This document shows positions 6,728-29,203 of a stretch of 34,488 nt of DNA, one piece after another; position 1 is the first letter of the stretch; each line of letters starts with the position of its first letter. Position numbers and translations under genes: made by a program. The notes beneath the pieces are model-generated. The model worked only from the letters and a program-made list of their open reading frames with translations. It searched no databases and had not been told where the DNA came from. Source of the DNA: Lentisphaeria bacterium (GTDB taxonomy: Bacteria; Verrucomicrobiota; Lentisphaeria; Oligosphaerales; Oligosphaeraceae); NCBI GenBank assembly GCA_045606125.1, contig JAZURH010000342.1:1-34488 (forward strand), read 5' to 3'.

Positions 6728-7534
6728 TTACTGCATATACATTTCTTTCCTGAATGTGGCGGGCGGGTATTTCATGGTACGCTTAAAGAACCGTGAAAAA
6801 TAGTATTCATTGGAAAAATGCAGTTCCCCGGCAATTTCCTTTATGGAAAGTCTTCCTTCCTCCAGGAGTTCAACCGCTCTATTAATAATTATATTTTCAT
6901 TGAATTTCCGTGGTGTGATTCCTGTTTCAGCAACGAACTTTCTTGCAAAAGTCTGCTCACCGGAGTTCATAAAGCGTGCCATTTCCGCCACTTTGACATG
7001 GGGATTCATTTGCTGCTGCAGCCATTGAGTCAACCCATTATAGGCCGGCAGATGAGAACTGCGACGGCGGCACAGTTCAAACTCCGGCATCTGCACAAGT
7101 CTGTGCAATATCGTACGGACAAGCAGATGTGCCCCGTTCAGGAACTGCATGGGTTCGATTGCCCCGGTATTCATGGATTCAGCCAGAGGCAGCAGTTCCG
7201 GTGCAATACCATGTTGCGTAAATGCAAAGCAGGAAAGTATTTCCATGCCATGAAGCATTGAAAAGTTAAAATGGATAGACAGACGCTGATGCTTCAGATG
7301 GCAATGCCTTATTTCCGCAAAAGGCGGCACAAGAAGCCACATGCCGCGCTGCAGAAATATCCTGCCGCCACCGTCCTCAAGAAAACTGCCCTCATTGCAA
7401 TCTATGCAGAACAACAGCCGCGCGTGGGGATATTTGGTATGGAACATTCCGTTGCTTTCACCTGAATAAAAGTTTTTGAACTTCAATTTCAAGGAATTGT
7501 CCAGTGCGATAAGTTCCTGCTGCTGCAATTTCAT
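6728..7534 (-). CDS. AraC-family transcriptional regulator (cupin-like sensor domain plus double HTH)
   Basis: The C-terminus reads FARKFVAETGITPRKFNENIIINRAVELLEEGRLSIKEIAGELHFSNEYYFSRFFKRTMKYPPATFRKE, a typical AraC/XylS HTH pair. The N-terminal ~150 aa look like an AraC-type ligand-binding barrel. The gene lies 136 bp upstream of the GRE on the same strand. Confidence 0.85.
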   Translation of the reverse strand: MKLQQQELIALDNSLKLKFKNFYSGESNGMFHTKYPHARLLFCIDCNEGSFLEDGGGRIFLQRGMWLLVPPFAEIRHCHLKHQRLSIHFNFSMLHGMEILSCFAFTQHGIAPELLPLAESMNTGAIEPMQFLNGAHLLVRTILHRLVQMPEFELCRRRSSHLPAYNGLTQWLQQQMNPHVKVAEMARFMNSGEQTFARKFVAETGITPRKFNENIIINRAVELLEEGRLSIKEIAGELHFSNEYYFSRFFKRTMKYPPATFRKEMYMQ

Positions 7535-11375: not shown

Positions 11376-12290
11376 ATGAATTCCATAATAGTTTCCTATG
11401 CGGTCATGGGCCTGGCATGGCTTCTCTGGTCCATGGATCCGATACTGATACGTGTAATAGGGGATGATGTATCCCGTCCTGTTATGGCAGGTCTTTCCCT
11501 GGGAATGGCCGGTCTGATAATGATAGTCCCCGCTATAAAGGGATTTACCCGGATCAGCCGCCGGCGCGATCTGTGGTTCGGCTTCTTCTACTACATAATT
11601 TTTGCCACTGTGATCGCGGATCTTCTCTATGTGATTGCAATTCGTAACCTGAATCCCGGCCTTGTCAGCCTGATTTTGCGTTCCCAGGTCATGATGGCAA
11701 TTCTGTCGGCATGGATATTTTTCAATGAAAAGCCTAACAAATCGGTCATGTTAGGCATGCTTATCGTAATTCTTGGGTATTGCGGGACAGCATATTTCTC
11801 CAATTCAGGAACTGTGCCGACGGAAGACGGCGTAACCAGAAACACGGTTCTGGGATGGCTTTGTGCCATTGCTGCCGCCATGCTGTGGACATCAGGAACC
11901 ATCATGGGCAAGAAACTTATGGAAAATATCAAGTCAAGCCATCTCTGCGGCATGAGAATGCTCACTGCGGGAATAATCACCATTGCGGCCCATATCTGCT
12001 GCGGGGGCGGAGGGGAATACCTGACACTGAGCGGAAAACAGTGGGGCATCATGGCATTGAAATCCCTGTTATGCTCAGCTCTGGCATACGGTCTTTACAT
12101 GTACGGACTGCATCTCTCCCCGGTCACGGCAGCCGCTGCAATAGAACAGGCGGCACCGCTGTTTACCTTGTTTGTGGCGACTTTCTTCCTCCATGAAACA
12201 ATAGCCATGTACCAGTGGTGCACAGTGACCGTCGTATTCATAGGAGCGGCCATAATACTTGTAAACCAGTACAAGCGGGCAAAAATCTGA
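11376..12290 (+). CDS. EamA/DMT-family transporter (10-TM drug/metabolite exporter type)
   Basis: The 304-aa ORF has two repeated 5-TM halves. Typical EamA blocks include IAIRNLNPGLVSLILRSQVMMAILSAWIFFNEKP and AAIEQAAPLFTLFVATFFLHETI. SD AGGAGA lies upstream. Confidence 0.85.
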   Translation: MNSIIVSYAVMGLAWLLWSMDPILIRVIGDDVSRPVMAGLSLGMAGLIMIVPAIKGFTRISRRRDLWFGFFYYIIFATVIADLLYVIAIRNLNPGLVSLILRSQVMMAILSAWIFFNEKPNKSVMLGMLIVILGYCGTAYFSNSGTVPTEDGVTRNTVLGWLCAIAAAMLWTSGTIMGKKLMENIKSSHLCGMRMLTAGIITIAAHICCGGGGEYLTLSGKQWGIMALKSLLCSALAYGLYMYGLHLSPVTAAAAIEQAAPLFTLFVATFFLHETIAMYQWCTVTVVFIGAAIILVNQYKRAKI

Positions 12291-12306: not shown

Positions 12307-14421
12307 ATGGCTCCCCTGCTGCCAATATGGTTCATAGCACTCTGGGCTGCCGCCGCTCTGGCCATAATGCTTGCCGGCTATCGCGGGCTGCGTCTGAACA
12401 GAAGGCGCCTGCTACTGCTTGCCTTGCTTGACATGTCGGTACTCACATGTCTGCTTCTTGCACTGCTGCAGCCAGTTTACAGAAAAAGCAGCCTGCAGAA
12501 AGGAGGATGCAAGATTGTATTGCTGGGAGACTTCTCCGGAAGCATGGCTGTTTGCGACATGCCCTCAGGAATCAGCAGACGCCGGACACTGGCGGATATC
12601 ACGCCATCTCTGCCCGATATAAGAACGGAATACATGGCGTATGCCGGCTCCATGAAACGCGTCGCGGATTTCAGCGGTGACGGCAGCCTGCCGGGGACAA
12701 GTCCGGCAGGAACCCATCTTCTTAAAATCCTTGAGGAATCCGGCAGATCTGTTCCCCTCGCCGCCGTTGTTCTTTTCAGCGACGGGGCAGTCAATGAGGG
12801 GCCATCCCTTACAGAGGCAGCCAAGGAATACAAGCGCCAGGGCATTCCTGTAAGCTGTGTCGGACTGGGTGGCGCATTGGATGTGCCGGATTATTCCGTC
12901 AGATGGCTCTCTCCCATAATGTCCGTAATGCGGGATGAAAACTGCATCCTTTCGGCTATTGTTGATGGCACTGCCCCCGCCGAACTGGAATTGACCTTTT
13001 CCGGAATCGAAGGAGTGATAGAAAAGCGCAAAGTCAGTTTTTCCAGTGCGCCGATACGGATTTCATTTGAAGTCTCTCCCCGAACTGAAGGTGTGCATTC
13101 ATACATGATTGCAGTAGACGGTGCTCCGAAAGAAACCAGAAAGGACAACAATGCCGCCTTTGCCGCGGTGGAGGCAGCTGCCCCGCCAGTGTTCAAGGTC
13201 CTGTCCCTTCTTGCCGGGCTTGACTGGGAGCAGAGATTCATCAATCAATTCGCTGCCGGAAACAACCAGTTTTCTACTGCGTCAATCGTAATGCTTTCAG
13301 AGAAACGCTTTGCCGCAAACGGTTTTCCTGACAATGCAGTTGTCCCGGAAAACAAATTTCCTGACAATTCTGCATTCTATGATAATTTTGACATTGTGAT
13401 CCTGGATACCAGAGCAATTCCAGCACTCGGGGAAAAAGGCATTCTTGCATTAAGGGCATTTGTAGAGAACAAAGGCGGGGGACTTATTGTCCGTGGCCCT
13501 GTCAGTGCAATGCCGTCGGTAATGGCCGATATGCTTCCATCAACAGGAACCGGGCTTGTACAGTCCAAGACTGCTTTGGAATTGAAGTTTCGCACGGATT
13601 TTATTTTCGGCAGAGACAAAACAGGGCTGCTTAACGGAGGACGGGGGGCTTTTCCTGCAGGCGGAGAGGATATTTATTTCCCTCTTGAAGGTCTCAGGAA
13701 ATCCGCCAGGGTAATTGCTGAGCTTGACATGCGGCATGCCGGAGTGCCAATTGCGGCGGGAATGCCCTTTGGTGCGGGACGTGTTGTTCAGACCGGCTTG
13801 GAATCCACATGGAGATGGCACATTTCCGGCAACGGACTTCATGGTGCATGGTGGAGCAATTTGTTTCTATGGCTTGCCGAGGCCGCCAAACCCAGAATAC
13901 GGGAAATGAACGGAAGGCTGACCAGGGCGGGAGAGGAATACCTTCTTGATCTGGCAGTACTGGATGACGATTTTCTACCTGCGCCCGAAGCATCTGTTAC
14001 AGCTCTGATCCGCGGGCCTGACAGTGCCGTTACGGAACTGGTCCTGGAACCGTCCCCTGACGGTGAGGGGCGCTATTCGGCCATCACCTTTCCAGAAAAA
14101 CACGGTGAATACAAGGTGTCCTACAGGATAAAGCTTCCTGAAAGAACTCTGCATAAAGAATCTTTTTTCATGGCATCGTCAGGTGGAAAGGAAATGGAAA
14201 ACACATCTTTTGACGGAACATTGCTCCGCGATGTGGCAAGAATCAGCGGAGGGCGTTATTTTAATGCAGATGAGTACGATATGTCGAATATTCCTTTGTC
14301 GAATAAAGTTCCGAGAGTATATTCTGCTTCATATCCTGCATCATCACGGCTTTTCGCGGTTTTGTTTGTAGTTTCGGCTTTGGTGCTTTGTGCAGTAAGA
14401 AGGCGTTTAGGCTTGAAATAA
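12307..14421 (+). CDS. Membrane-anchored vWA-domain protein (BatA-like) with a GATase1-like middle domain and a C-terminal TM anchor
   Basis: Two N-terminal TM helices are followed by the MIDAS motif VLLGDFSGSM (DxSxS) and then VVLFSDGAVNEG. A ThuA/GATase1-like block reads FDIVILDTRAIPALGEKGILALRAFVENKGGGLIV, and WRWHISG...WWSNLFLWLAE follows. The C-terminal TM is LFAVLFVVSALVLCAV. Confidence 0.75.
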   Translation: MAPLLPIWFIALWAAAALAIMLAGYRGLRLNRRRLLLLALLDMSVLTCLLLALLQPVYRKSSLQKGGCKIVLLGDFSGSMAVCDMPSGISRRRTLADITPSLPDIRTEYMAYAGSMKRVADFSGDGSLPGTSPAGTHLLKILEESGRSVPLAAVVLFSDGAVNEGPSLTEAAKEYKRQGIPVSCVGLGGALDVPDYSVRWLSPIMSVMRDENCILSAIVDGTAPAELELTFSGIEGVIEKRKVSFSSAPIRISFEVSPRTEGVHSYMIAVDGAPKETRKDNNAAFAAVEAAAPPVFKVLSLLAGLDWEQRFINQFAAGNNQFSTASIVMLSEKRFAANGFPDNAVVPENKFPDNSAFYDNFDIVILDTRAIPALGEKGILALRAFVENKGGGLIVRGPVSAMPSVMADMLPSTGTGLVQSKTALELKFRTDFIFGRDKTGLLNGGRGAFPAGGEDIYFPLEGLRKSARVIAELDMRHAGVPIAAGMPFGAGRVVQTGLESTWRWHISGNGLHGAWWSNLFLWLAEAAKPRIREMNGRLTRAGEEYLLDLAVLDDDFLPAPEASVTALIRGPDSAVTELVLEPSPDGEGRYSAITFPEKHGEYKVSYRIKLPERTLHKESFFMASSGGKEMENTSFDGTLLRDVARISGGRYFNADEYDMSNIPLSNKVPRVYSASYPASSRLFAVLFVVSALVLCAVRRRLGLK

Positions 14422-14436
14422 CAGGACGGTTTTCCA

Positions 14437-17400
14437 ATGAAACTTCATCATACATTATGTGCGGCAATTCTGGTTTGCCTGTCTGCATTTGCTTCCGATG
14501 GATGGACTGAACTGATGCAATTCAGAAAGCCTGAAGGCAACCTTGTCTTCAAAATGGCGGGACGCCCGGGTGTCCCCCCGGTGAAACTGCGGATTTCCGG
14601 TGCGGAACGCAAGGCAGTGATAAATATGGGGGACGGGTCATGGAATATTTCATGTACTGATGACAAGGGAACAGGAATATCCCTTCCGGCACCGGTAGAT
14701 CACGGACGGGCGGAAAATGCTTCTGAATATGAAGTCCTGGTAAAATTCCGGGAGGAATGGTGGGCATATTATATAAATGGAATGTTGTGCGGTGAAATGC
14801 AGGCTCCCATGGATCTGGAAGGATGCAGGCTGGAATGGCCGAATGACTCCCGTGTGCAGCTGAGTGCACCCATGGATTTCCAGATAACGGCAAGGCCTTC
14901 GTTCCAATCGGACTTTATGATCGAACCGGGAGCAAAAGATGAATTGCAGCCATGGAAGAAAGAGTACGGCAACTGGCATATACATACGGCCCTGCTTGAA
15001 TCAAAAGACAGGCCCGAGACAGACCAGGGCACAATGAAACGCACGCCGCCATCGGCTGACAAGTCTCCGAATTTCTACTCTCTCAAGGGTGGAGGGAAAG
15101 AAGAGGATTGCCTGCTTACAACAGGAAGCGATCTTTTTGACAACTATACGCTTACGGCATCATTGCAGCCGGAAGGCGGCGAAGCCGGCATTGCATTTCT
15201 GTGCCGCGGAAGCGGAAAGGACACTACATTCTATGCCCTGACTCTGTATCGCGAAAACGACGGTGAAATCAGGCTATGGAAATATGAAAATGGAAAGCGC
15301 ACCAATCTTGTGCGCGTGGCGGTCCCTCTTTATGATAAGCAATGGTATCTGCCCGGCGTCAGCCTTCGCAACGGTGAGATAACAGCTACTCTGGACAATG
15401 CCCTGCTGTTCCGTTACAGAGGACGCATTCCGGCAAACGGCAGAATAGGACTTTTTGCCAAAACACCTGAAGAGACCAGATTTGACGATGTAAAGCTTTC
15501 ATCAAACGGTGATTTTGCGTTGGAAAACGAAAACGATCTGGCGGCAAATACGGTGTTTGCAACGCCCGGCATGGTCCGCCTTGCTGAAAAGCCGGGAGAA
15601 GTGTCTCTGCCGCAAGCCGGTTTTTCATTTAATGTAAAGGCCGGGGAAACAGATGAGATGCTGGCTCTTGGCCGCGCGCATTGTGCCTCGTCTGTGTTTT
15701 CAGCCCGGATTGACAGTGAAAAAGCGGGACTTGTCGCCGGATGGCGTGGAAATGGTCAGCCATATTATGTTTTTCTCAGGACCCGCAAAGGCAGGAATGC
15801 AGATTATGAACTTATACGCTTTGCACCCGGCGGAAAAAGCGTTCTGGACAGGTTTTCCGCGCCATGGCGGGATGGAGACGAGCTTCTTGTGGAAATATCC
15901 GCCTCGGGAATGCTGAAATGCTGCAGCAGCGATGCTATGATTTTCCGCAGGGACGATGTCAAGCCGGGTGCTGCCGGACTTTTCGTTCCTGCAGGTTCCT
16001 CAGCTGAATTCAGTGGTATACTTATGTCCAGAGAGCGTAAAAGGGCCTATGAAAGACTGCAGGAGAACAAGGTCTTTGAAAATGACCCGTTCATGCGTCA
16101 CTGGGCTGCCGCCGAAGGTCAGTGGATAGGCGGAGGCGGTGACATAATGTACCACAAGGGCGACTTCTTCGGCGATTTCAATATGACTCTTCCCTATTTG
16201 GCGGGTGGTGAAATACATTTCGGTCTTGCGGACGGAGCAAAAGAAGGCGCGCTGAAACTGGTTCTGGCTGAAAAGGAAATAAAGATAAGCGGTCCGGACG
16301 AATATACGGAAACCTTTGCGATAGCACCTCAAAAGGCTGACGGAACGATAAATGTGAAGCTGGAAGGCTACTGGCTTGATGTATCCTGTTCCGGTAAACC
16401 CATCATGTCCCGCAGACTGGAGATGCCCCTGAGGGAATACGGAACCAGGGTACTGACCAGGAAATACACCAGCAAAATAATGGAGAAGAGCAGCGTAACC
16501 AGAATGAATGTCATAGATGACTTCTTCAGCGAATCTCCCCATGACTGGCTGGTCAACGGAGGCGACTGGCAGATAATCAACCGTTTTCAGTGTACAGCCA
16601 GCTGGTCCCACATGATAAGCCATTCCCTCGAATCCATGGGCGCATTCTGGCGCAAGCAGCGTTTTGAGGGAGACATGACCCTGGAATTCTATGCCGGGAC
16701 AAGGCATGGCTATTACCACAAAGCAGGCAACATGAACTGCACAATAATGGCAAAAGACAACACTCCGTCCTCCGGCTATACTGTCACATGCTCAGAATGG
16801 GACCATAATAATTCCCAAAACTGGACTGTGCTGTACAGAAACGGCATAAGAATGACCAGATCCGATGCCTACATGGTGCCCCGTCGGCGCATGGGGACTT
16901 ACAGGCGCATACACAATCCTCTTATCGCCAGAGGAAGAGATATTCACGGTGCCTGGTACTATATGAAATTGCGCAAGATAGGCAATAAAATTGAATACTG
17001 GTTTGACGATGAACTGGTAATGACTGCCAATGATGATGATGTGCTCAAAGAAGGTACTTTGGGAATATGGACATTTGACCACAGCATGACGCTGGCCCAA
17101 ATTAAGATCACATACGAAAAAATGGTCAATAAGCAGCATGATGTGAAATTGCTGCCTGCCGAGATACCTGCACCCGCTAAACCTGCCGCCCCTGAACAAT
17201 GGGATGCAACTGCAGGAGGATTCCCGCTTAATGCCATGGAATCAAGATACTGGAAATACAGCGATGCCGTTGCTCAGGGAAAGGCGGAGCAATTTGCATT
17301 GAACACGGACGGCATCATGGTAGTGAACAATCTTGGTGCAGGCGACATGAAAATATCAGCGGAACTTCCCGCTCTGAAACTGGCGGATGTGGCGGGTTTC

Positions 17401-20172
17401 AGGTTCCGGGTGAAAAGGACACGGGGAGCCGGATTCAATTTCTTCTACAATATACTTTCCGAAGACGGAAAGAAGATAATCGGCCGCTATTATCACAGGA
17501 TTTCAGGAACTGATTTTTCAAGAGGTCCCTGGAAGAAGACCGGTGAGACGGAAATACCTGTATTTGAAGGTGCTCTAACAGGCACCGATGGATGGTCAGA
17601 TGTCACAGTATGGCTTCCCCGCTGGATACGAACAAGCGAGGCCGGGGATGCCAAACATCTTGTCAAGGTCGGCGGATTCGGATTGGAGCAGTTCGATTTC
17701 ATGGCTTCCGGAATTGCTGGTAATGCGCCAGGTGATGCCTACGCCGTATGCGATTTCAGACCCATATTCTATAAACGGCCTGAAGTAGTCGTCGGCAAGG
17801 ATGTACGGGCAAATGCCAGACAGGGCCTGACGGGAAGCCGTCCTCCCATGACAATGGATGCCAAGGTTCTGGCCGGACAGCTGGAAAAATGCGCCCAGGG
17901 GACCGACAACCCCTGCGCCTATGTAGATTTAAACAAAGGCGGCTCAGCATTGACTGCAATAGTTGAATGGCTGCCTTCCCACGATGAAGCGGATGTGAAG
18001 GTCGAATGGGCCGACGGCAGATTTGATACAGTAGCCGTGAAAAGCGGAAGACCATATTGTGACTACCGCCTGGAGAATATGAAACTTAAGTTCAACGGCG
18101 CTGATTTAAAACTGATCCATGACAAGCGGGGCGACGCCATTGCAACAGCGGTGATTCCGCGCAATGACGGTGCCGTCGCAAAGTTCGCCGGAGGGAAACT
18201 GGATTTTGAACTTAACCTGGGAAAAAACAATGTCAGGCATTTCCAGCTTGAAACCGGGGATGCAAAACGGGGAAACGCGCCCCCTGCACTTATGAAAATT
18301 GATGGATTCACGCCATTGTGGCTTGGCTTTGAAGAGGAAACTATTCCATCTGCCCTGGTTCGCCAGGGTGAACCGCGCATGATGTTCGATCATGATCCGG
18401 AGACCGGAAGGCATATGATCATAAACAACTATCCCGGCAACGGCGGGTTAAGGACCCAGTATAAGCAAAGTTATTCCATTGCAGAATATCCGGTGATGTT
18501 CCTGCGGTACAATGCCGATGATATGTGCCATGTATCGCTTATATATGGTCACAATTATATCCGCCTGGGGGCCCAGAGCAGCAGAGACAGCCGCAATGTG
18601 CGTTTTGCAAAACCTCTGGAGCAGGACGGTAAATGGCATTCATGGCTGGGCTTTGCAGCTGACGGATTCGTCAACCGAAACTACAATACCAGAAAATATT
18701 CCGTATCCGAATTTACGATAGGGACCGGAAGAGGAGCAGACCAGACAGGAGTCTACAGCAGATTGAAACTGGATGACATCATGGCTGGACCGGCAGTCAA
18801 TTCAGCAGAAAATCTGGCATTTACTCCCACATATTTTGATTTTGACGGCGTGGAGCGGATTGAATATGCATTTTTCAACGGGGAATTGTTCTATGACGGC
18901 AGGGAATTGAACTGGAGCAAAGCTGCACCAGGCGCCAAGATCCAGCCGGTTCTGCCAAAGGATGTCAAGGATGGACTGGCCAGCATACTTGTACGTGCGG
19001 TTGACAAGAGGGGCAATATTTCACCCGTGACACAACTTCCTTTCCTGCTGGACAGGAAGCCTCCCAAAGTCGAAATGGCAGTTGTGACTACTGACCGGCC
19101 GGAACTGAACGGCAAAATGCTGCGGATCAAGGTCGACAAGCATGGAGGAGCTCCGCTGAATCTTGCAAAAGCAGTGTACAAGACATCGGAAAAAAAACTG
19201 GGGATTTCCAGCTGGTCCAATGAATATGACAATACCGAAAACCATGACATCGCATTCCTTAACTACCCCTTCATACTCAGGCGCCAGCTTGATAAGACTC
19301 CGGATGGAGGGACTGTGGATTTCCAGATGTGCGGCATAGAAGACGGTGCTGGAAACAAATGTCCGGATCATTCATATAAGATCAAGGTAAATTTTGCGGG
19401 TGACAAGCGCGGTCCCAGCTGGCACAGCCTTGTGCCCGATGACGGCTATGTCATAGCGCATAACTGGGATGGAACGCAAGTCGCAAACAGTAAGTTTTTC
19501 CACAGCGGAGGCGGACAGGAACTGAGAATCGTAAATGAGGCGGCATCATCCCCGTTCCTGAGGCATTACGGCTATTCAAGAAATGCCAGCTTGATCTGCA
19601 ATATAACGTGGGAACCTGCCAAGACCCCCTGGATGGGCTTCAGGCTGTCAACCACAACACACAGAAAGAATACCTGGACAAGGCTGGTTCTTACCGCCGA
19701 GGACAACAGGCATTTCATTATTTCGCTCACGGCGCCCAGCAAGGAGGCTAATGAACTCAATACAAAACAGACATTCCAGTGGGAAAACAACAAATGGATC
19801 AACTTCTCCTTCAATGTGCTCCAGATGCTCAGGGACAAGAAAATCCCCGATGCGGACAAGATCAAGTTCAAATCCATTACATTCCTGAGAACTGGCATGA
19901 AGCACAGGGATAATCTGCAGCTGGATGACTTCTTTATCATGGGACCACCGGTAAAGAAGCGGGACTGCAGGATAATTGCATTTGACGAAAGCGGCGTGGC
20001 ATCCATAGACATATATGACGGCGATGCTATTGTAAAAACATTGAAAATTGGATCGGACTATTACAATCTGGATGATCTTCGCACAGACAAATTGAGATGG
20101 CTGCGCCTGATAGCAAAGGACAAGGTCGGCAATGTTTCCATTCCATGCTGGCTGCCCATCGCACCAAAATGA
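14437..20172 (+). CDS. Giant secreted protein (1911 aa) with repeated concanavalin-A-like/LamG (DUF1080-like) jelly-roll modules, a Pro-rich linker and C-terminal Ig-like modules
   Basis: The signal peptide is MKLHHTLCAAILVCLSAFASDGW. At least five segments have a LamG/DUF1080-type pattern, for example YTLTASLQPEGGEAGIAFLCRG...FYALTLYRENDGEIRLWKY...GRIGLFAKTPEETRFDDVKL and FEGDMTLEFYAG...GTLGIWTFDHSMTLAQIKITYEKM. The linker is LLPAEIPAPAKPAAPEQWD. Three D-x-x-G-N motifs typical of bacterial Ig-like domains occur late in the protein: AVDKRGNIS, IEDGAGNKC and AKDKVGNVS. The CDS call is strong; the domain calls are pattern-based. Confidence 0.8.
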   Translation: MKLHHTLCAAILVCLSAFASDGWTELMQFRKPEGNLVFKMAGRPGVPPVKLRISGAERKAVINMGDGSWNISCTDDKGTGISLPAPVDHGRAENASEYEVLVKFREEWWAYYINGMLCGEMQAPMDLEGCRLEWPNDSRVQLSAPMDFQITARPSFQSDFMIEPGAKDELQPWKKEYGNWHIHTALLESKDRPETDQGTMKRTPPSADKSPNFYSLKGGGKEEDCLLTTGSDLFDNYTLTASLQPEGGEAGIAFLCRGSGKDTTFYALTLYRENDGEIRLWKYENGKRTNLVRVAVPLYDKQWYLPGVSLRNGEITATLDNALLFRYRGRIPANGRIGLFAKTPEETRFDDVKLSSNGDFALENENDLAANTVFATPGMVRLAEKPGEVSLPQAGFSFNVKAGETDEMLALGRAHCASSVFSARIDSEKAGLVAGWRGNGQPYYVFLRTRKGRNADYELIRFAPGGKSVLDRFSAPWRDGDELLVEISASGMLKCCSSDAMIFRRDDVKPGAAGLFVPAGSSAEFSGILMSRERKRAYERLQENKVFENDPFMRHWAAAEGQWIGGGGDIMYHKGDFFGDFNMTLPYLAGGEIHFGLADGAKEGALKLVLAEKEIKISGPDEYTETFAIAPQKADGTINVKLEGYWLDVSCSGKPIMSRRLEMPLREYGTRVLTRKYTSKIMEKSSVTRMNVIDDFFSESPHDWLVNGGDWQIINRFQCTASWSHMISHSLESMGAFWRKQRFEGDMTLEFYAGTRHGYYHKAGNMNCTIMAKDNTPSSGYTVTCSEWDHNNSQNWTVLYRNGIRMTRSDAYMVPRRRMGTYRRIHNPLIARGRDIHGAWYYMKLRKIGNKIEYWFDDELVMTANDDDVLKEGTLGIWTFDHSMTLAQIKITYEKMVNKQHDVKLLPAEIPAPAKPAAPEQWDATAGGFPLNAMESRYWKYSDAVAQGKAEQFALNTDGIMVVNNLGAGDMKISAELPALKLADVAGFRFRVKRTRGAGFNFFYNILSEDGKKIIGRYYHRISGTDFSRGPWKKTGETEIPVFEGALTGTDGWSDVTVWLPRWIRTSEAGDAKHLVKVGGFGLEQFDFMASGIAGNAPGDAYAVCDFRPIFYKRPEVVVGKDVRANARQGLTGSRPPMTMDAKVLAGQLEKCAQGTDNPCAYVDLNKGGSALTAIVEWLPSHDEADVKVEWADGRFDTVAVKSGRPYCDYRLENMKLKFNGADLKLIHDKRGDAIATAVIPRNDGAVAKFAGGKLDFELNLGKNNVRHFQLETGDAKRGNAPPALMKIDGFTPLWLGFEEETIPSALVRQGEPRMMFDHDPETGRHMIINNYPGNGGLRTQYKQSYSIAEYPVMFLRYNADDMCHVSLIYGHNYIRLGAQSSRDSRNVRFAKPLEQDGKWHSWLGFAADGFVNRNYNTRKYSVSEFTIGTGRGADQTGVYSRLKLDDIMAGPAVNSAENLAFTPTYFDFDGVERIEYAFFNGELFYDGRELNWSKAAPGAKIQPVLPKDVKDGLASILVRAVDKRGNISPVTQLPFLLDRKPPKVEMAVVTTDRPELNGKMLRIKVDKHGGAPLNLAKAVYKTSEKKLGISSWSNEYDNTENHDIAFLNYPFILRRQLDKTPDGGTVDFQMCGIEDGAGNKCPDHSYKIKVNFAGDKRGPSWHSLVPDDGYVIAHNWDGTQVANSKFFHSGGGQELRIVNEAASSPFLRHYGYSRNASLICNITWEPAKTPWMGFRLSTTTHRKNTWTRLVLTAEDNRHFIISLTAPSKEANELNTKQTFQWENNKWINFSFNVLQMLRDKKIPDADKIKFKSITFLRTGMKHRDNLQLDDFFIMGPPVKKRDCRIIAFDESGVASIDIYDGDAIVKTLKIGSDYYNLDDLRTDKLRWLRLIAKDKVGNVSIPCWLPIAPK

Positions 20173-20194
20173 CTGTTTGAATAAAGGAGAATAC

Positions 20195-20932
20195 ATGACA
20201 CGGATAGCATTTATCAGCGATATACACTCAAATATAGATGCCCTGCAGGCGGTGCTGGCCCATATTGATGCAAAGGGGGCTGATATGACTGTCTGCCTGG
20301 GAGACATTGTCGGCTACGGTCCCTGCCCTGTGGAATGCATACAGGAAATACGTAAACGGGAAATACAGAGTGTGATGGGAAACCATGACGAATATGTCAC
20401 TTTGCTTATGGATCCCAAGGTGGAAAAACTGAGGCCGGACATAAAACAGGCAGTGGAATGGACTCAGATGCAGCTTTCAATGGAGGACCTGAAATGGCTC
20501 AGCAAGCTGCCTATGAGAATGGATGCGGATGAGTTTTCCATTCTGCATTCGTCCTTCGCCCCGATAAAATGGTCCTACTGCCTGGATGAGCGCAGTTTCA
20601 AAAACAATTTTGCCTATCAGAACTGCCAGCTGGCATTCTGCGGGCACAGCCACAGTCCGCTTGTGGGAATGGATATCCCCGGCGATGAACCGCAACTGGA
20701 TTTCTACGAAAAACCCAAAATACTGCCTGCGGACAGGAAAGTCATGGTGAATGTGGGATCAGTTGGACAGCCGAGAGACAGAAATCCCAAGGCATGCGTG
20801 GTGTTTTACGAACTTGAGCAGCGTAAAGTCTGGCTGGAGAGAGTGGAATACGATGTAGAGGCGGCAAAAGCGCGTTTTGAGGCAGCAGGATTGCCGGAGC
20901 GTTTCGGGAAGCGCATTATTGACGGTAAATAA
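20195..20932 (+). CDS. Metallophosphoesterase (calcineurin-like, YfcE/MJ0936-type)
   Basis: Matching motifs are FISDIHSN, CLGDIVGYG, GNHD, CGHSH and NVGSVGQPRD. I prefer the start at MTRIAF (ATG 20195) because AAAGGAGA lies 5-6 nt upstream and the listed upstream extension overlaps the preceding gene. Confidence 0.85.
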   Translation: MTRIAFISDIHSNIDALQAVLAHIDAKGADMTVCLGDIVGYGPCPVECIQEIRKREIQSVMGNHDEYVTLLMDPKVEKLRPDIKQAVEWTQMQLSMEDLKWLSKLPMRMDADEFSILHSSFAPIKWSYCLDERSFKNNFAYQNCQLAFCGHSHSPLVGMDIPGDEPQLDFYEKPKILPADRKVMVNVGSVGQPRDRNPKACVVFYELEQRKVWLERVEYDVEAAKARFEAAGLPERFGKRIIDGK

Positions 20933-20944
20933 TAAATTGCGTTT

Positions 20945-22954
20945 ATGACATATATAAAAAGGATGGCAATCATGGTTTTGACAGCCGGCTTGATGGCGCT
21001 GGCCGGTTCCGGTCCCCGGGTCAGCGATGTTGAATTTTACAATGCTCTTGATCTGGACATGCCCGGCCTCGAACAGGTCTCAAAAGCAGCCAATGCAAAG
21101 GATTATGACAAAGCAGGCAAGGCGCTGGCAGCATATTACAGAAATCGCCAGACTCCGTTATGGTTTGTATCATGGAGAGACAGGCCTGCACCGAAGAAGA
21201 CGCCCGGTGTCCGGATCATCAGGGATGCCGAGGAGGTTATGGCCCACAGATTGACCAGCGTCGGCGTAAAGCACCAGTTCGGTCCCCGCATAGACTGGTC
21301 TGCAAATCCCATGAAAAACAAATACAAAGAATGGACTTGGCAGCTGAGCAGGCATGACTGCTGGGAAAAGCTGCGCATTGCTTACTGGCATACGGGAGAT
21401 GACAAATATGCCGCCGAATTTGCAAAGCAGATGATCGGATGGGTGGAAGACAACCCTCCTCCTTCAGACTGGGGAAATTATCCTGGTTCAAGATGGCGTA
21501 CCATTGAGGCCGGCATCAGAAACATGTCAAGCTGGCCGAATTGCTTCTTTGGGTTCTTAGGCTCGCCTTCATTTGATGACAGTGCCATTGTGATTATGCT
21601 GAAGTCCTTCTACGACCATGCCGTCCATCTGAAAAAATATCCCACCAAAGGAAACTGGCTTTGCATGGAAATGTGCGGTCTTTATAATATCGGCGTGCTT
21701 TTCCCAGAATTCAGAGATGCGGAGAAATGGAGGGATTTTGCATTGAAGACCCTTTATGCCGAAATGGAGATACAGGTATATCCGGACGGAGCGCAGACCG
21801 AGCTTGCGCCGGGATATCACGGAGTATCCCTGGGATGCTTTGAAAAGGTTCTGGAAACTGCAAAATTAAACAAGCTTCCAGTACCCGGGGACTATATGAA
21901 ACGCATTGAAAAAATGTATGACTACTATGTCAAATTCTCCAAGCCGAACAGATGCATGCCTGAATTGAATGACTCGGGCAAAGGATCCGTGGTGCGTTTT
22001 GTTGGAAGAGGAGCAACATATTTTCCGGAAAACGAGCATTTCAAATACATTGCATCAAAGGGCAAAAAAGGAGTTGAACCGCCCTACCGCTCTGTGCTGT
22101 TCCCCTATGCGGGCTGGGTTGTTATGCGTTCAGACTGGTCAGAGGATGCACGCTACATGCTTTTTGATGTAGGGCCCTTCGGAACCGGGCACCAGCATGA
22201 AGACAAGCTCTCCATTCTGATTCACGCCTACGGCAGTGACCTGCTCAGCGAAGGCGGAATATATGAGTACGATAATTCAATCTGGAGAAAATATGTTCTT
22301 TTGACTTATGCACATAATACGGCAGTGGTGGATGGATTGTCGCAGGCAAGAGGCGGAAATACAGAACTCTACAGGACTGAAAAACCCCTGAAGAGTAATC
22401 TTATAGTGGATGGAGACATGGAATATGCCTGGGGTATCTATAAGGATGGATACGGGTATAATGAGCACACTCAGGTTACTCATTTCAGATCCGTCACATT
22501 TGTTAAAGGCCGTTTCTGGGTTCTGGCAGATGTATTTACGCCCGGAGATGATGCAACTCATACATACACAAGCATATTCCATTTTGATACACCTGAAGCC
22601 GTTGTGGATAAAAAGTCGAAGACTGTGCGTTCAAATAATCAGGAAAAGGCAAATCTTGCGATAATTCCCGTTATTCCTGAGGGACTTGGACTTGAAGTCG
22701 TGACCGGAGAGAACAAAAACGGCATGCCTCAGGGATGGATCAGGGAAAAGCCGTACAAGATGCGCCCGGTCGCCACGCCCATGTTCAGCCGCACAACGGC
22801 CGGTGTATGCACGGAAGTATACATACTGTATCCACTGAAGGCCGGAGAAGATAATCCGATTGACAAGGCAACGTTCAGCAATAGAACAGTTGACATTAAA
22901 TTGAAAAACGGTGAAAGTTTCAAAATAAGACCATTGTTGGAGCCTAAGGAGTAA
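20945..22954 (+). CDS. Secreted heparinase II/III-family polysaccharide lyase
   Basis: The signal-like N-terminus is MTYIKRMAIMVLTAGLMALAGSG. An alginate-lyase-like alpha/alpha toroid region reads WTWQLSRHDCWEKLRIAYWHTGDDKYAAEFAKQMIGWVEDNPP, RWRTIEAGIR and NWLCMEMCGL. YPDGAQTELAPGYHG follows. The Hepar_II_III C-domain signature is GTGHQHEDKLSILIHAYGSDLL...YAHNTAVVDG. Confidence 0.85.
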   Translation: MTYIKRMAIMVLTAGLMALAGSGPRVSDVEFYNALDLDMPGLEQVSKAANAKDYDKAGKALAAYYRNRQTPLWFVSWRDRPAPKKTPGVRIIRDAEEVMAHRLTSVGVKHQFGPRIDWSANPMKNKYKEWTWQLSRHDCWEKLRIAYWHTGDDKYAAEFAKQMIGWVEDNPPPSDWGNYPGSRWRTIEAGIRNMSSWPNCFFGFLGSPSFDDSAIVIMLKSFYDHAVHLKKYPTKGNWLCMEMCGLYNIGVLFPEFRDAEKWRDFALKTLYAEMEIQVYPDGAQTELAPGYHGVSLGCFEKVLETAKLNKLPVPGDYMKRIEKMYDYYVKFSKPNRCMPELNDSGKGSVVRFVGRGATYFPENEHFKYIASKGKKGVEPPYRSVLFPYAGWVVMRSDWSEDARYMLFDVGPFGTGHQHEDKLSILIHAYGSDLLSEGGIYEYDNSIWRKYVLLTYAHNTAVVDGLSQARGGNTELYRTEKPLKSNLIVDGDMEYAWGIYKDGYGYNEHTQVTHFRSVTFVKGRFWVLADVFTPGDDATHTYTSIFHFDTPEAVVDKKSKTVRSNNQEKANLAIIPVIPEGLGLEVVTGENKNGMPQGWIREKPYKMRPVATPMFSRTTAGVCTEVYILYPLKAGEDNPIDKATFSNRTVDIKLKNGESFKIRPLLEPKE

Positions 22955-22959
22955 AAGAA

Positions 22960-25137
22960 ATGAACATTAGCGATTTACCAGTCGGCGATGCCGGAGCCTG
23001 CATAGAATACAGTTATTTTCCTACGCGTTGGCAGCATTTTCTCTGGCGCAACTGGGGCATAGCTCCGGCAGAGCGCATAGCTGATATACTGGGATGCGAT
23101 GTTGCCAGGGTAAAAGCCGCCGCTGAGGAGCTTGGGCTTCCTTCTTCCCCGGTACTCAGTCCCAAGTGGCTCAGCCATGGATACCTTACCATAATACGCA
23201 AAAACTGGCAGCTGCTGAACTATGAACAGCTGCTTCAGCTTCTGGGATGGAGCGCGGAAAAGCTGGCCTACTCCCTAAAGGAAGAGGATTTCCTTTATCA
23301 CAAGCTGGGAAACCTGAAGCCAATATGCCCGAAAGTCAGCTATACTGAACTCACTCCGGAGCAAAAAGAGGCAACAGCAAAAATAAAGAATATGCTTGGT
23401 TCCTTTATCCCCGCAGAAGAGGCAGATTATAACGAGCATCCGTTCGCATTTGCAGAAAAGTACAAAGCCAGAAAAACTGCGGACGGACGCCAGCGTTTTG
23501 AGTTCAATTTCATTCATTCCTATGCGGCAAGCTGCGGTGATGTGCTGGGCGAAGCAGAAAAGCTGGATCCGGTTCCGGAGAATCTTCTCGAGCAGTATGC
23601 TTCCATGGGAATACAGGGAATATGGATCCATGCCCTGCTGTATCTTCTGTATCCCATTCCGGGGGCGGAAGAGTATTCAGCAGGCCGTGAAAAACGCCTG
23701 GCAAATCTGAAGCGCATAATCGAGCGCTGCGCCCGCTACGGCATAAAGCTGTATCTTTACCTGAACGAACCCCGTTTCATGCCTGCACCATTCTATGACA
23801 AAAAACCGGAATGGAGAGGCATCAAAAAAGACGGTGACGAAGATAATATATGGCATATCTGCACAACGCGCACAAAAGAACCGCTTCAGTGGCTTGAAAG
23901 TGGCCTGAAATGGCTCTTTGCCGAAGCAAAGGGACTGGGGGGCATATTCTGCATCAATCAGTCTGAAAATCCAACAAGCTGCCATTCGCATACTAATTCA
24001 TACGCCTGCCCCTACTGCAGCAAGCATCTGCCTGAGGAAATCGTGTCCGAAGTCATAAGCGCTATGGAAAGAGGCATGCATGCCTCCGCGCCCGAAGCCA
24101 AAATGATTGCATACGACTGGTCATGGACCCGTTTCAGAGGTGATACGGACAATGCTCCTTTCAAGCGTGAAATCATCGACAGGCTCCCGACAGACCTGTA
24201 TTTGAACTGCGTCAGCGAATGGGGCATGAACACAAAGATCGGCGGCGTGAAACAGTATCTGGTGGATTATTCAATTTCCCAGCCCGGTCCCAGCGAAGAG
24301 ACTCTGGAAGTGTGGCGCCATGCCCAGAAGAGGGGCATAAATGCAGTTGCCAAAGTGCAGCTTAACAATTCATGGGAGCTTTCCGCAGTGCCCTATATTC
24401 CGGTACCCTATCTTGTCGAAGAGCATCTCAACAATCTTGAGAAAGCCGGCGTAAAGGGGCTGATGCTGAGCTGGACTCTGGGCGGATATCCCGGAGGAAA
24501 TCTTGAGCTGCTCAAGGCCACGCCGGAAGAAATGGCGGCGGCCCGCTATCACAAGGAAGTGGCGGACATTGTATGCAGGGCAGAAAAGCAGTTCAGCGAA
24601 TCTTTCAGGAACTTCCCCTTTACTGTCGGTGTGATTTACAGAGCGCCCATGAACTATGGACCTATGAACCTGCTTTATCTTGAGCCCAGCGGATACAAGG
24701 CCACCATGGTGGGCTTCCCCTACGATGATCTGAAGGGATGGCGCAGCCTGTATCCGGAGGATATTTTCGAAAATCAGTTCAAGATGCTGACAGAGGGCTG
24801 GAAAGAAGGTTTGAACATCCTTGAAACTGCCGAAGCCAGTCTGACAGAGGCAGAGAAGGCTGATTTCCTGGAATTGAAGACCATGGCGGAAGCGTCATAC
24901 TGCCATTTCCGCAGCACATATATGCAGATATGCTTTGTTCGTGCAAGGGAGGCCGGAAACAAAGAAGGCATGCTTGCCTGTGCAAAGGAGGAACTGGAAT
25001 TGGCACGCTGGCTTTACGGTATAGCCCGCAGGGATTCCCGCATAGGATTCGAGGCAAGCAATCACTATTATTACTCCCTCGGTGACCTGAAGGAAAAAAT
25101 GCTCAACTGCATGCATATCATAGAAAAACTGTCCTGA
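22960..25137 (+). CDS. Uncharacterised cytoplasmic protein, putative clan GH-A-like (beta/alpha)8 glycosidase with a duplicated N-terminal helical module and a C-terminal helical domain
   Basis: No signal peptide. Candidate acid/base motifs are LYLYLNEPRF (E270, nt 23761-23778) or INQSENP (E336). The candidate nucleophile is CVSEWG (E420, nt 24211-24225). A Cys cluster reads CHSHTNSYACPYC (C341/C350/C353). The N-terminal repeat is RNWGIAPAERIADILGCDVARV versus KNWQLLNYEQLLQLLGWSAEKL. The CDS is secure; the function is an inference. Confidence 0.6.
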   Translation: MNISDLPVGDAGACIEYSYFPTRWQHFLWRNWGIAPAERIADILGCDVARVKAAAEELGLPSSPVLSPKWLSHGYLTIIRKNWQLLNYEQLLQLLGWSAEKLAYSLKEEDFLYHKLGNLKPICPKVSYTELTPEQKEATAKIKNMLGSFIPAEEADYNEHPFAFAEKYKARKTADGRQRFEFNFIHSYAASCGDVLGEAEKLDPVPENLLEQYASMGIQGIWIHALLYLLYPIPGAEEYSAGREKRLANLKRIIERCARYGIKLYLYLNEPRFMPAPFYDKKPEWRGIKKDGDEDNIWHICTTRTKEPLQWLESGLKWLFAEAKGLGGIFCINQSENPTSCHSHTNSYACPYCSKHLPEEIVSEVISAMERGMHASAPEAKMIAYDWSWTRFRGDTDNAPFKREIIDRLPTDLYLNCVSEWGMNTKIGGVKQYLVDYSISQPGPSEETLEVWRHAQKRGINAVAKVQLNNSWELSAVPYIPVPYLVEEHLNNLEKAGVKGLMLSWTLGGYPGGNLELLKATPEEMAAARYHKEVADIVCRAEKQFSESFRNFPFTVGVIYRAPMNYGPMNLLYLEPSGYKATMVGFPYDDLKGWRSLYPEDIFENQFKMLTEGWKEGLNILETAEASLTEAEKADFLELKTMAEASYCHFRSTYMQICFVRAREAGNKEGMLACAKEELELARWLYGIARRDSRIGFEASNHYYYSLGDLKEKMLNCMHIIEKLS

Positions 25138-25142
25138 CGGTA

Positions 25143-25189
25143 AATCGAGTAGGAGGTAGGCGAAATAATCGCCTGCCTCCTATTCGATT
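25143..25189. terminator. Long hairpin (21-bp stem, 5-nt loop) between convergent genes; probable bidirectional terminator
   Basis: AATCGAGTAGGAGGTAGGCGA (25143-25163), loop AATAA, then TCGCCTGCCTCCTATTCGATT (25169-25189). All 21 positions pair if two G-U wobbles are allowed. No classic U-tract follows. Confidence 0.55.
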
Positions 25190-25239: not shown

Positions 25240-26202
25240 CTAATTTTTAGTTTCCTGCGCTATTTTTCTTACTGTCCTTGTTGACGCTCCTGTTGCTGTA
25301 CAAATGTCCTTTACAGCAAAATTATTCAGAAGCATACGCCTTATTATAAAATGCTTCTCCTCGATTCTTCCCTCAGTCCTTCCTTCAGTCCTTCCTTCGG
25401 CTCTTCCTTCAGCTCTTCCTTCGGCTCTTCCCATTGCTTTAAATTGCTCTACTGCCTTGCACATTTCTATTTTTCCTCCCCTTTCATCATTTACAATGTT
25501 GCATCCCAGACAAACATTAAGCACATCAACAGCCTCTTTACTGAGAACCACTCCAGGAGTTTCCTGCTCCATTTCATGACTGATCAAAACTGCGTTATCC
25601 TGATTGCAAAAGAAATTTACCACGGCTTTCAATTCCTCGCAACTTAATTTTTCCCTTTTTTCATGAAGGTCACTCATTTCCAGAACCGTAATCCTGTAAT
25701 CGTTAATAAACGGCCTGAGCGCCTCATCAAACTGAGAATACATTTGCATCAGATTTGTCTTATGACGCCATTTTCGTCTGCCTATGTTAATCACCAGATT
25801 CACAATTGGGGGAATGCCATGCCTTCTTTTTCCTTCTGACTTTTTAAGCTGGGCCATATATGTTCTGGCATCATACTCCATCATGCGCATTACCATTTCC
25901 TCATCACTGCGGGATTGCAATTCAACTCCTAAAATCAGGTAATTTGTGCCGCCGTCAGTATGCATGCCAGCCTGAAACAGCAAATCCCGGAAAAGATTAT
26001 CCGTAACTCCTTCAAGTTCTTTTTTTTCAGAACTGCTTTTTTTCTTTTTATGCAATATTCTCAGCAGTTCCGTCCTTATTTCTCTGAGCTTTCCGGGTTT
26101 AATTCTCTGCTTTCCATCAAAGAGCAGAAAATTAAACAAATCTGCAACGATTTCCTTTCTGTTAAAGAATAATCTTGCAGCTGTATCTTTTTCTGATGTC
26201 AT
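25240..26202 (-). CDS. Rpn/YhgA-like recombination-promoting nuclease / putative transposase (PD-(D/E)XK family)
   Basis: The N-terminus is KEIVADLFNFLLFDGKQRIKPGKL. The core reads NYLILGVELQSRSDEEMVMRMMEYDARTY...PPIVNLVINIGRRKWRHKTNL...LRPFINDYRITVLEMSDL. The C-terminus has a (GRxE)6 repeat followed by an HTH-like tail, DICTATGASTRTVRKIAQ. The gene is visibly more AT-rich than its neighbours. Confidence 0.8.
   Translation of the reverse strand: MTSEKDTAARLFFNRKEIVADLFNFLLFDGKQRIKPGKLREIRTELLRILHKKKKSSSEKKELEGVTDNLFRDLLFQAGMHTDGGTNYLILGVELQSRSDEEMVMRMMEYDARTYMAQLKKSEGKRRHGIPPIVNLVINIGRRKWRHKTNLMQMYSQFDEALRPFINDYRITVLEMSDLHEKREKLSCEELKAVVNFFCNQDNAVLISHEMEQETPGVVLSKEAVDVLNVCLGCNIVNDERGGKIEMCKAVEQFKAMGRAEGRAEGRAEGRTEGRTEGRIEEKHFIIRRMLLNNFAVKDICTATGASTRTVRKIAQETKN
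25360..25431 (-). repeat. 12-bp tandem repeat x6 inside the Rpn gene, encoding GRAE-GRAE-GRAE-GRTE-GRTE-GRIE
   Basis: Read directly on the minus strand: gga aga gcc gaa / gga aga gct gaa / gga aga gcc gaa / gga agg act gaa / gga agg act gag / gga aga atc gag. Confidence 0.9.
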
Positions 26203-26550
26203 AAATATAACCCCTCTTTTTGCTGAATAAAAATGATAAATGGATTTTAATATCCAGTTAGAGAATTTACAATATCTTTTTAAGATTTCAAGAAAAGATA
26301 TTATTTTTTCTAATTATGAATACAAAAAGAAGAGCACATCCATCCTCAAAAACATACAAAGAATACCGAACTGTCTGAAACTGCACCTTGTACTAAGCCC
26401 ACATCAGAAACACTGCAGCTTCATGATTTAAAAAAAGGCATACCGGGGCTGCACTTTCAATCATGCGCCCCACTGCAGTCAATACGCAACAACACATCCC
26501 GGGACAGGAAGCAGCCCTGGTTATAAAAATCAGAAAACAAATATATACTA

Positions 26551-28896: not shown

Positions 28897-29174
28897 TTTA
28901 ACGCTCCGCCATTCAATAGATGAGTTGTCTATCTATGATGAGCGTAATTTAAATAGAAGAGCACTACAATCAATGGGGAAGTTATGGTTTTAGGCATTTT
29001 TAATGTTTTTTGCGAAATTCTGATACTAATGCCCAGACACCAAAGTGCTCTAAAATGGAACTTGTTTAAAAATAAATGTGCCGGCCTTTCGTCAAAAGCA
29101 GATGGCAATTATGTCAAATATTGCAAAACATGTTCAAGTTCCATTTTTAACTGCTGTTTTTTAAAAAACTGTTG

Positions 29175-29203
29175 TTGAAAAAGAAATCGACAAATAGTAT
29201 AAT
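29175..29203 (+). promoter_or_regulatory. Near-consensus sigma70-type promoter for the GH99-like gene
   Basis: TTGAAA (29175-29180), a 17-nt spacer, then TATAAT (29198-29203). It lies about 100 nt upstream of ATG 29303. Confidence 0.45.

Follow-up and report, generated by a model that had tools for sequence, protein, structure and literature searches.

Five plus-strand open reading frames (ORFs), named here g1 to g5, follow one another at positions 12307-25137 of contig JAZURH010000342.1 from a Lentisphaeria bacterium (assembly GCA_045606125.1), within a 34,488-nt stretch that was analysed as a whole and is referred to below as the window (Table 1). We conclude, with a probability of about two in three, that g1-g5 form a mosaic, i.e. 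a lineage-specific co-directional run of separately inherited genes and not one dedicated machine. A sequence-only reading of the same DNA had proposed that the five products make up a single system for glycan capture and depolymerisation at the cell surface, a proposal that finds no support in the conservation of the gene neighbourhoods. The five genes do share one direction, with short gaps and no internal terminator. Their order, however, is not conserved across relatives: only g1-g2-g3 (in one genome) and g2-g3 (in two more) were found again.

Table 1 Features of the window, with strand and predicted product where given
Feature	Position	Strand	Description
EamA/DMT transporter gene	11376-12290	+	Pfam EamA, E 2.5e-39; ends 16 nt before g1
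g1, 704 aa	12307-14421	+	Membrane protein: vWA + Ig-like + GATase1-like
g2, 1911 aa	14437-20172	+	Secreted giant protein, ConA/LG-like beta-sandwich array
g3, 245 aa	20195-20932	+	Cytoplasmic metallophosphoesterase, Metallophos_2
g4, 669 aa	20945-22954	+	Secreted PL12-type heparinase-III-like lyase
g5, 725 aa	22960-25137	+	Cytoplasmic GH-like protein, uncharacterised family
21-bp hairpin	25143-25189	none	Between g5 and the convergent Rpn/YhgA-like gene
Rpn/YhgA-like gene	25240-26202		Transposase_31, PD-(D/E)XK; convergent to g5; C-terminal GRAEGR/GRTEGR repeat
GH78 rhamnosidase gene	within 25240-28896		In one block with the Rpn-like gene, between g5 and the WbsX-like gene
WbsX-like gene	29219-30931		

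Gene order in related genomes

The comparison of neighbourhoods covered 87 g5 loci (seven obtained by exact protein look-up and 80 from a metagenome scan) searched with all proteins of the window, 75 g3 loci from a scan of species-representative genomes (about 26 of them from Lentisphaeria), eight further g2 loci on seven distinct contigs, and one g1 locus (L014). Named homologues of g1, g2 and g5 came from Victivallales and other Lentisphaerae metagenome-assembled genomes, many of them from the rumen or gut. A homologue of g1, g2, g3 or g4 was found near g5 in none of the 87 g5 loci, and g4 or g5 near g3 in none of the 75 g3 loci. Among the loci examined, neither the g3-g4 nor the g4-g5 junction occurs anywhere outside the window. 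The sequence-only reading had staked its system on gene order being kept in related genomes, an expectation that mostly fails: the left part of the train recurs in the closest Victivallales relatives only, and the trio of von Willebrand factor A (vWA) protein, giant protein and lyase (g1, g2 and g4) was seen nowhere else among these loci.

The left part itself is kept to varying extents. Only three further Victivallales genomes have g2 adjoining g3 (L015, L017 and L082). One of these is the nearest relative, RGIG3456 (L011, on the same contig as L015), which retains g1-g2-g3 at 50%, 62% and 82% identity, respectively, with a 4-nt overlap between g2 and g3, and whose contig ends inside g3. The other two (L017 and L082) have g2-g3 separated by a gap of ~240 nt, without g1. 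At four distinct loci (L008, L009, L010 and L012/L013), g2 homologues with 35-41% identity have none of the other four genes adjacent.

The right part of the train points in the same direction. In the two closest g5 loci (L091 and L093, 62-63% identity), the WbsX-like gene of the window is kept just downstream at 55-57% identity, and upstream of g5 lie unrelated minus-strand genes and no lyase. Since these loci share downstream but not upstream synteny with the window, the g4/g5 junction is not ancestral. The block at 25240-28896 that separates g5 from the WbsX-like gene in the window looks inserted or rearranged relative to L091 and L093. The neighbourhood of g4 was judged indirectly: no g4 homologue was present in the 169 related loci fetched (~2 Mb).

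Spacing and co-transcription

The gaps at g1/g2, g2/g3, g3/g4 and g4/g5 are 15, 22, 12 and 5 nt, and the 16 nt between the EamA gene and g1 represent a linkage as tight as any within the train; the coordinates agree here with the packing described in the sequence-only reading. These values place the start of g3 at the ATG of position 20195, which an AAGGAG site precedes, with a longer ORF from 20132 set aside. The ribosome-binding site of g5 (AGGAG) falls inside the 3' end of g4. GC content, overall and at third codon positions, is even along the whole run. The co-directional run starts at 7912 with genes for ManC, a NUDIX protein, a DHDPS-family protein and a 230-aa membrane protein, followed by EamA and g1, and the boundary drawn around five genes is therefore partly arbitrary. 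ManC, NUDIX, DHDPS-family and EamA proteins are a functional mixture, which supports the mosaic reading.

To place this packing in its local context, gaps between same-strand neighbours were collected from nine related Lentisphaerae loci, where they have a median of 38 nt and are ≤25 nt in 40% of cases (n = 89). Short gaps also join genes without an obvious functional link, such as proS, an acyl-CoA-synthetase-like gene, proC and an AraC regulator gene in L004. Five successive gaps of ≤22 nt are above average in tightness and not exceptional. A plus-strand terminator scan inside the train returned weak intragenic matches only, and g1-g5 are, judging from their spacing, probably co-transcribed. 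This packing favours co-transcription but gives weak evidence for a common function.

The hairpin noted earlier downstream of g5 is real: it has 21 pairs, a folding free energy of -43.7 kcal/mol and a z-score of -10.6 against shuffled sequences, and is not followed by a T-tract. A bidirectional terminator or an RNA-stabilising element is a possible role. The idea that the hairpin is a repeat associated with the neighbouring Rpn-like gene was rejected, as no second copy of it occurs within the 34-kb window.

The vWA protein and the metallophosphoesterase

At the level of single proteins, the sequence-only reading proved accurate. It had described a BatA-like vWA/GATase1-like membrane protein without MoxR or DUF58 partners, a giant exported protein with at least five ConA/LamG-like modules, a secreted heparinase II/III lyase and a novel GH-A-like enzyme, with the last of these and the phosphoesterase placed in the cytoplasm, and the profile matches, structural models and predicted compartments all bear this out.

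Hydrophobic segments of g1 lie at residues 1-28, 33-58 and 676-703, and the protein reads as two N-terminal transmembrane segments, a vWA domain, an immunoglobulin (Ig)-like region, a GATase1-like domain, a filamin-like Ig domain and a C-terminal transmembrane segment. The family profile, built from 16 members, matches Bat-protein vWA structures (BatB 3ibs, 4jdu and 4rck) at 72-208, Ig-like domains at about 220-310, GATase1-like structures (3soz, 2gk3 and 3rht) at 365-555 and filamin-type Ig domains at 556-654, and distant family members match PF07090 (GATase1_like). The metal-ion-dependent adhesion site (MIDAS) motif DxSxS (D75, S77, S79) is intact and invariant in the family. As such, g1 has the membrane-anchored, MIDAS-bearing vWA domain found in Bat/MoxR-associated systems. 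Neither the window nor the surroundings of the g1 homologue in L014 (39% identity) contain a MoxR AAA+ ATPase or DUF58 gene. This homologue sits between a gene for an NAD-dependent epimerase and genes for a GT9 heptosyltransferase and an MsbA-like ABC protein, with no giant protein nearby.

Among solved structures, g3 is closest to 3rqz, a metallophosphoesterase from structural genomics (E 5e-38), and then to proteins of the PrpE/ApaH type; NCBIfam models for ApaH and YfcE match below threshold only. A role as an LpxH/LpxG-type lipid A enzyme, an idea raised by the GT9 neighbours, was rejected given the 3rqz and PrpE/ApaH/YfcE-type matches and the lack of any LpxH model match. Homologues are 54-82% identical in Lentisphaerae and ~40% identical in Verrucomicrobia, including Akkermansia (L087). 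In the Verrucomicrobia loci (L040-L088), g3 is almost always followed by genes for a GT9 heptosyltransferase and a ~300-aa secreted protein, whereas many Lentisphaeria have a gene for a 531-aa helical cytoplasmic protein after g3. In 11 Lentisphaeria loci the order continues from this 531-aa protein to a ~736-aa g1-like protein, which aligns with g1 along practically its whole length at 26-29% identity and whose group forms a clade of its own apart from g1. The 531-aa protein was also considered as a short relative of g2 and rejected (hidden Markov model E > 0.7). By sequence comparison, g3 is an ApaH/PrpE-like gene conserved across the Planctomycetes-Verrucomicrobia-Chlamydiae (PVC) group, with usual neighbours that are envelope-type and not catabolic. 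This lends no support to the earlier suggestion that the phosphoesterase hints at phosphodiester-containing or otherwise decorated substrates. The GT9 neighbours, together with the MsbA-like gene, suggest a link of both the g3 and g1 families to the envelope or the lipopolysaccharide core.

The giant secreted protein

The N-terminus of g2 resembles a signal peptide. Against Pfam, the full protein yields a single ConA-like module (PF06439/DUF1080 and PF19763) at about residues 735-890, with a weak match of 32.8 bits in which no single domain passes on its own, and ten overlapping segments searched separately gave nothing significant beyond this DUF1080/DUF6250 module. For residues 1-1200, AlphaFold2 returned an almost entirely beta fold (pLDDT 83, pTM 0.81), for which Foldseek retrieved neurexin-1alpha LNS1-6 (E 5e-15), laminin G-like (LG) arrays of laminin, tandem galectins and CBM66, and segments 197-363 and 381-535 are mutually homologous. 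A fair reading of the model is an array of about six beta-sandwich modules. The model thus has the tandem ConA/LG-type beta-sandwiches of such arrays, with carbohydrate binding as a putative function.

The g2 family comprises 29 members of ~1900-2000 aa, all from Lentisphaerae. Its most conserved stretch, at about residues 700-900, coincides with the PF06439/PF19763 module and reaches 65-71% column identity. Characterised DUF1080 members are 3-keto-glycoside lyases or hydratases, and not lectins (bioRxiv 10.1101/2024.03.25.586180). Since these are enzymes, the label "lectin" for this module of g2 is not secure. In Victivallales RGIG6748 (L017, 3891-15058), the g2 homologue, which has the DUF1080-like module, precedes g3, and downstream of g3 come genes for a GH2 enzyme, a "sugar phosphate isomerase-like" TIM barrel of the AP_endonuc_2 type and an oxidoreductase of the Gfo/Idh/MocA type. 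DUF1080, isomerase-like and Gfo proteins are components of the recently described 3-keto-glycoside (AL/BT) pathway.

The lyase and the glycosidase-like protein

For g4, both Pfam domains exceed their gathering scores by a wide margin (Hepar_II_III_N, 290.9 bits with a cut-off of 22; Hepar_II_III_C, 98 bits with a cut-off of 24). The top PDB matches are 5jmd, 4mmh and 4fnv, while alginate lyases reach E 1e-4 only, and almost all of g4 can be aligned with BT4657 (5jmd) and with Pedobacter HepIII (E 4e-56 and 5e-55). Within the motifs GNW (236-238), PGYH (289-292) and GHQHED (415-420), the Asn, Tyr-His and His positions are identical in the aligned HepIII structures; we take these to be the catalytic residues described for HepIII. 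The heparin-sulfate lyase HepC equivalog model NF045573 scores 227 bits, far under its cut-off of 700, and the substrate may therefore differ. By domain content and closest structures, g4 is of polysaccharide lyase (PL) family 12 type and not a HepC equivalog. Its predicted target is most likely a heparosan- or heparan-like polymer of GlcNAc and uronic acid, which would be cleaved outside the cytoplasm.

In contrast to g4, g5 belongs to no family in Pfam or NCBIfam, its sequence matches nothing in the PDB at E ≤1, and exact look-up of the window's own protein returned no record. Its AlphaFold2 model is confident (pLDDT 92.4, pTM 0.92) and comprises an N-terminal helical domain, a (beta/alpha)8 barrel as in glycosidases of glycoside hydrolase (GH) clan A and a C-terminal helical bundle. 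The best Foldseek folds are GH138 BT0997 (top), GH89 (CpGH89 and human NAGLU), GH20 and GH84, with TMq values of 0.39-0.44 against human NAGLU and CpGH89; viral structures gave generic GH5 and TIM-barrel matches only. In clan GH-A, the acid/base Glu lies in an N-E-P motif and the nucleophile Glu three strands later. The g5 family has an invariant N269-E270-P271 after the strand at 263-268 and an invariant S419-E420 after the strand at 414-418, and the NEP motif with a Glu three strands on may correspond to the GH-A pattern. Four cysteines (C301, C341, C350 and C353), invariant in 38 family members and including a CxSHxxxxxCPxC motif in the TIM-barrel region, may bind zinc or another metal in a structural role, which would be unusual for a glycosidase-like barrel. 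Based on the model, g5 is glycosidase-like by fold, and by sequence it falls in no established GH family.

This family is large: grouping at 50% identity gives 2519 clusters with E ≤0.001, of which 859 reach E ≤1e-30. In some members the N-terminal domain is of GH20b type, and some are fusions with a GH95, alkaline phosphatase or N-acetyltransferase domain. The usual partners of g5, next to it in 13-14 of 75 loci, encode a regulator of the LacI type, a creatinase/prolidase-like M24 protein, a polysaccharide deacetylase of family CE4 and a DUF6786-like protein (e.g. L005, L108, L110, L111, L122, L127, L130 and L154), and two g5 paralogues lie within this cluster in L110 and L111. Elsewhere, AraC or GntR regulator, GHL6, DUF4838 or GH39 genes are adjacent. 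These usual partners point to the processing of imported N-acetylated sugars.

Assembly of the train and alternative explanations

Under the mosaic reading, at least three independently inherited units would stand side by side in one probable transcript. g1 and g3 behave as conserved PVC envelope or housekeeping genes that turn up close together, and beside GT9 genes, in varied arrangements; the giant LG-array protein g2 lies between them in the present clade. g4 is a sporadic secreted PL12 lyase, and g5 a widespread cytoplasmic enzyme resembling retaining glycosidases. Several observations weigh against this reading. The nearest relative RGIG3456 keeps g1-g2-g3, and the end of its contig inside g3 leaves room for g4-g5 beyond it. 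The five successive gaps are tighter than the local norm and too short to fit terminators, and a shared transcript is therefore probable; shared transcription can reflect shared function even when it is not widely conserved. The set is also coherent in biochemical terms, with a lyase and a lectin-like array that are both secreted and an enzyme resembling GH89 and GH20. Finally, no genomic context was found for any g4 orthologue, a metagenome scan with g4 having matched 37 stretches, none of them a relative.

The dedicated five-gene surface system proposed from sequence, in which g1 would anchor or assemble g2, g2 would bind an acidic polysaccharide, g4 would cut it, and g3 and g5 would finish the imported products, draws on the packing, the g1-g2-g3 order repeated in RGIG3456, and the pairing of a secreted multi-LG/ConA-like array and a secreted PL12-like lyase with a glycosidase-like fold. 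Yet no locus joins a member of g1-g3 with g4 or g5 among the 87 g5, 75 g3, eight g2 and one g1 loci, g3 is conserved across the PVC group with envelope-type neighbours, g1 homologues occur without a giant protein and giant proteins without g1, and no catabolic-type transporter or regulator accompanies the genes besides the generic EamA gene, all of which makes this system decidedly unlikely. A narrower version would confine the function to g4 and g5, with oligosaccharides released by the lyase from heparosan or heparan being imported and trimmed by g5 as a GH89-like alpha-N-acetylglucosaminidase, and with g1-g3 as passengers. The 5-nt gap with a ribosome-binding site inside the end of g4, the resemblance of the g5 model to human NAGLU and CpGH89 and to the GH20 and GH84 N-acetylhexosaminidases, the GH20b-type domain of some family members, and a CE4 deacetylase as usual partner, which fits N-acetyl sugars, are all consistent with such a pair. 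Still, a PL12 or Hepar_II_III homologue lies near g5 in 0 of 87 loci, the top fold is GH138 and not GH89 with modest TM-scores throughout, unsaturated uronyl hydrolases (GH88 or other) and sulfatases are absent from the window, and close g5 orthologues keep their downstream and not their upstream synteny, so that we regard the pair as unlikely, if less so than the full system.

Two further alternatives centre on g1 and g3. These could be partners across Lentisphaeria in an envelope module, with g2 inserted as a surface or periplasmic client. Such a module would account for the 11 other Lentisphaeria loci in which g3 and a g1-like protein lie within ~2 kb in a different gene order, for the g1-g2-g3 order in two genomes, and for the GT9 heptosyltransferase genes found beside both families. 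It is the least probable of the explanations we weighed: the g1-like neighbour, at 26-29% identity and in a separate clade, may be a paralogue, L017 and L082 have g2-g3 without g1, the linking 531-aa helical protein is unrelated to g2, and proximity may merely reflect an inherited housekeeping neighbourhood. An extension of this idea would take g1 and g3, which are close in two gene orders across Lentisphaeria, as a functional pair that recruited g2 and with which g4 and g5 are co-transcribed, the whole being a newly assembled glycan capture and depolymerisation system without counterpart among described polysaccharide utilisation loci (PULs); we consider this a quite improbable outcome. Taken together, the neighbourhood evidence leads us to prefer the mosaic reading.

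Other features of the window and significance

Upstream of the train, on the minus strand at 3512-6591, a gene for a glycyl-radical enzyme (PFL-like and Gly_radical domains) overlaps the gene for its radical-SAM activase. This pair lies upstream of an AraC regulator gene (6728-7534), which is divergent from ManC. At the other end of the window, an AT-rich imperfect palindrome with 27-nt arms that are 78% complementary occupies intergenic sequence at 29139-29186, upstream of the WbsX-like gene.

As a five-gene system, the train carries little weight, its adjacency being lineage-specific and the tight packing of unrelated genes being common in these genomes, and it serves as a useful warning not to deduce gene function in PVC bacteria from nothing but spacing. 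Its value lies mainly in the uncharacterised g2 and g5 families. The former is a group of ~2000-aa LG-array proteins confined to Lentisphaerae, with a strongly conserved DUF1080-like core, and both families are amenable to enzymology. The latter, which is large, confidently folded and without a Pfam or CAZy-type assignment, is a good candidate for a new GH family acting on N-acetylated sugars.

Comparison with known systems

BatA and BatB are vWA membrane proteins of the Bat (Bacteroides aerotolerance) system, encoded together with MoxR and DUF58 genes (PMC3557215, PMC5700661). g1 shares with these proteins the N-terminal transmembrane segments and the vWA domain with its MIDAS, and its family profile matches BatB (3ibs) as well as 4jdu, an "aerotolerance-related membrane protein". 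Unlike them, it has additional Ig-like and GATase1-like domains and a C-terminal transmembrane segment, and MoxR/DUF58 genes are missing both from the window and from the surroundings of any g1 homologue examined. A similar partial likeness links g4 to the heparin/heparan sulfate locus of Bacteroides thetaiotaomicron, whose PL12 enzyme BT4657 resembles g4, itself secreted and with the motifs conserved. The window has no SusC/D pair, GH88, sulfatase or other lyase, however, and so lacks every other hallmark of this Bacteroides PUL besides the PL12 lyase.

With enzymes of families GH89, GH20, GH84 and GH138, the g5 model shares a TIM barrel followed by a helical bundle; g5 has an invariant NEP motif behind one strand and an invariant Glu three strands on, and some of its relatives have a GH20b-type N-terminal domain. 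g5 differs from them in having no detectable sequence similarity to solved structures or Pfam families, and in its distinct N-terminal helical domain, four-cysteine cluster and cytoplasmic location. Finally, g2 can be compared with the DUF1080 enzymes AL2 and BT2 of the 3-keto-glycoside pathway. While its module is embedded in a ~2000-aa multi-LG protein and partners of the oxidoreductase or isomerase-like kind are absent from the window, the stretch at about residues 700-900 matches PF06439 and PF19763, and the homologue in L017 lies near genes for both a sugar-phosphate-isomerase-like TIM-barrel protein and a Gfo/Idh/MocA protein.

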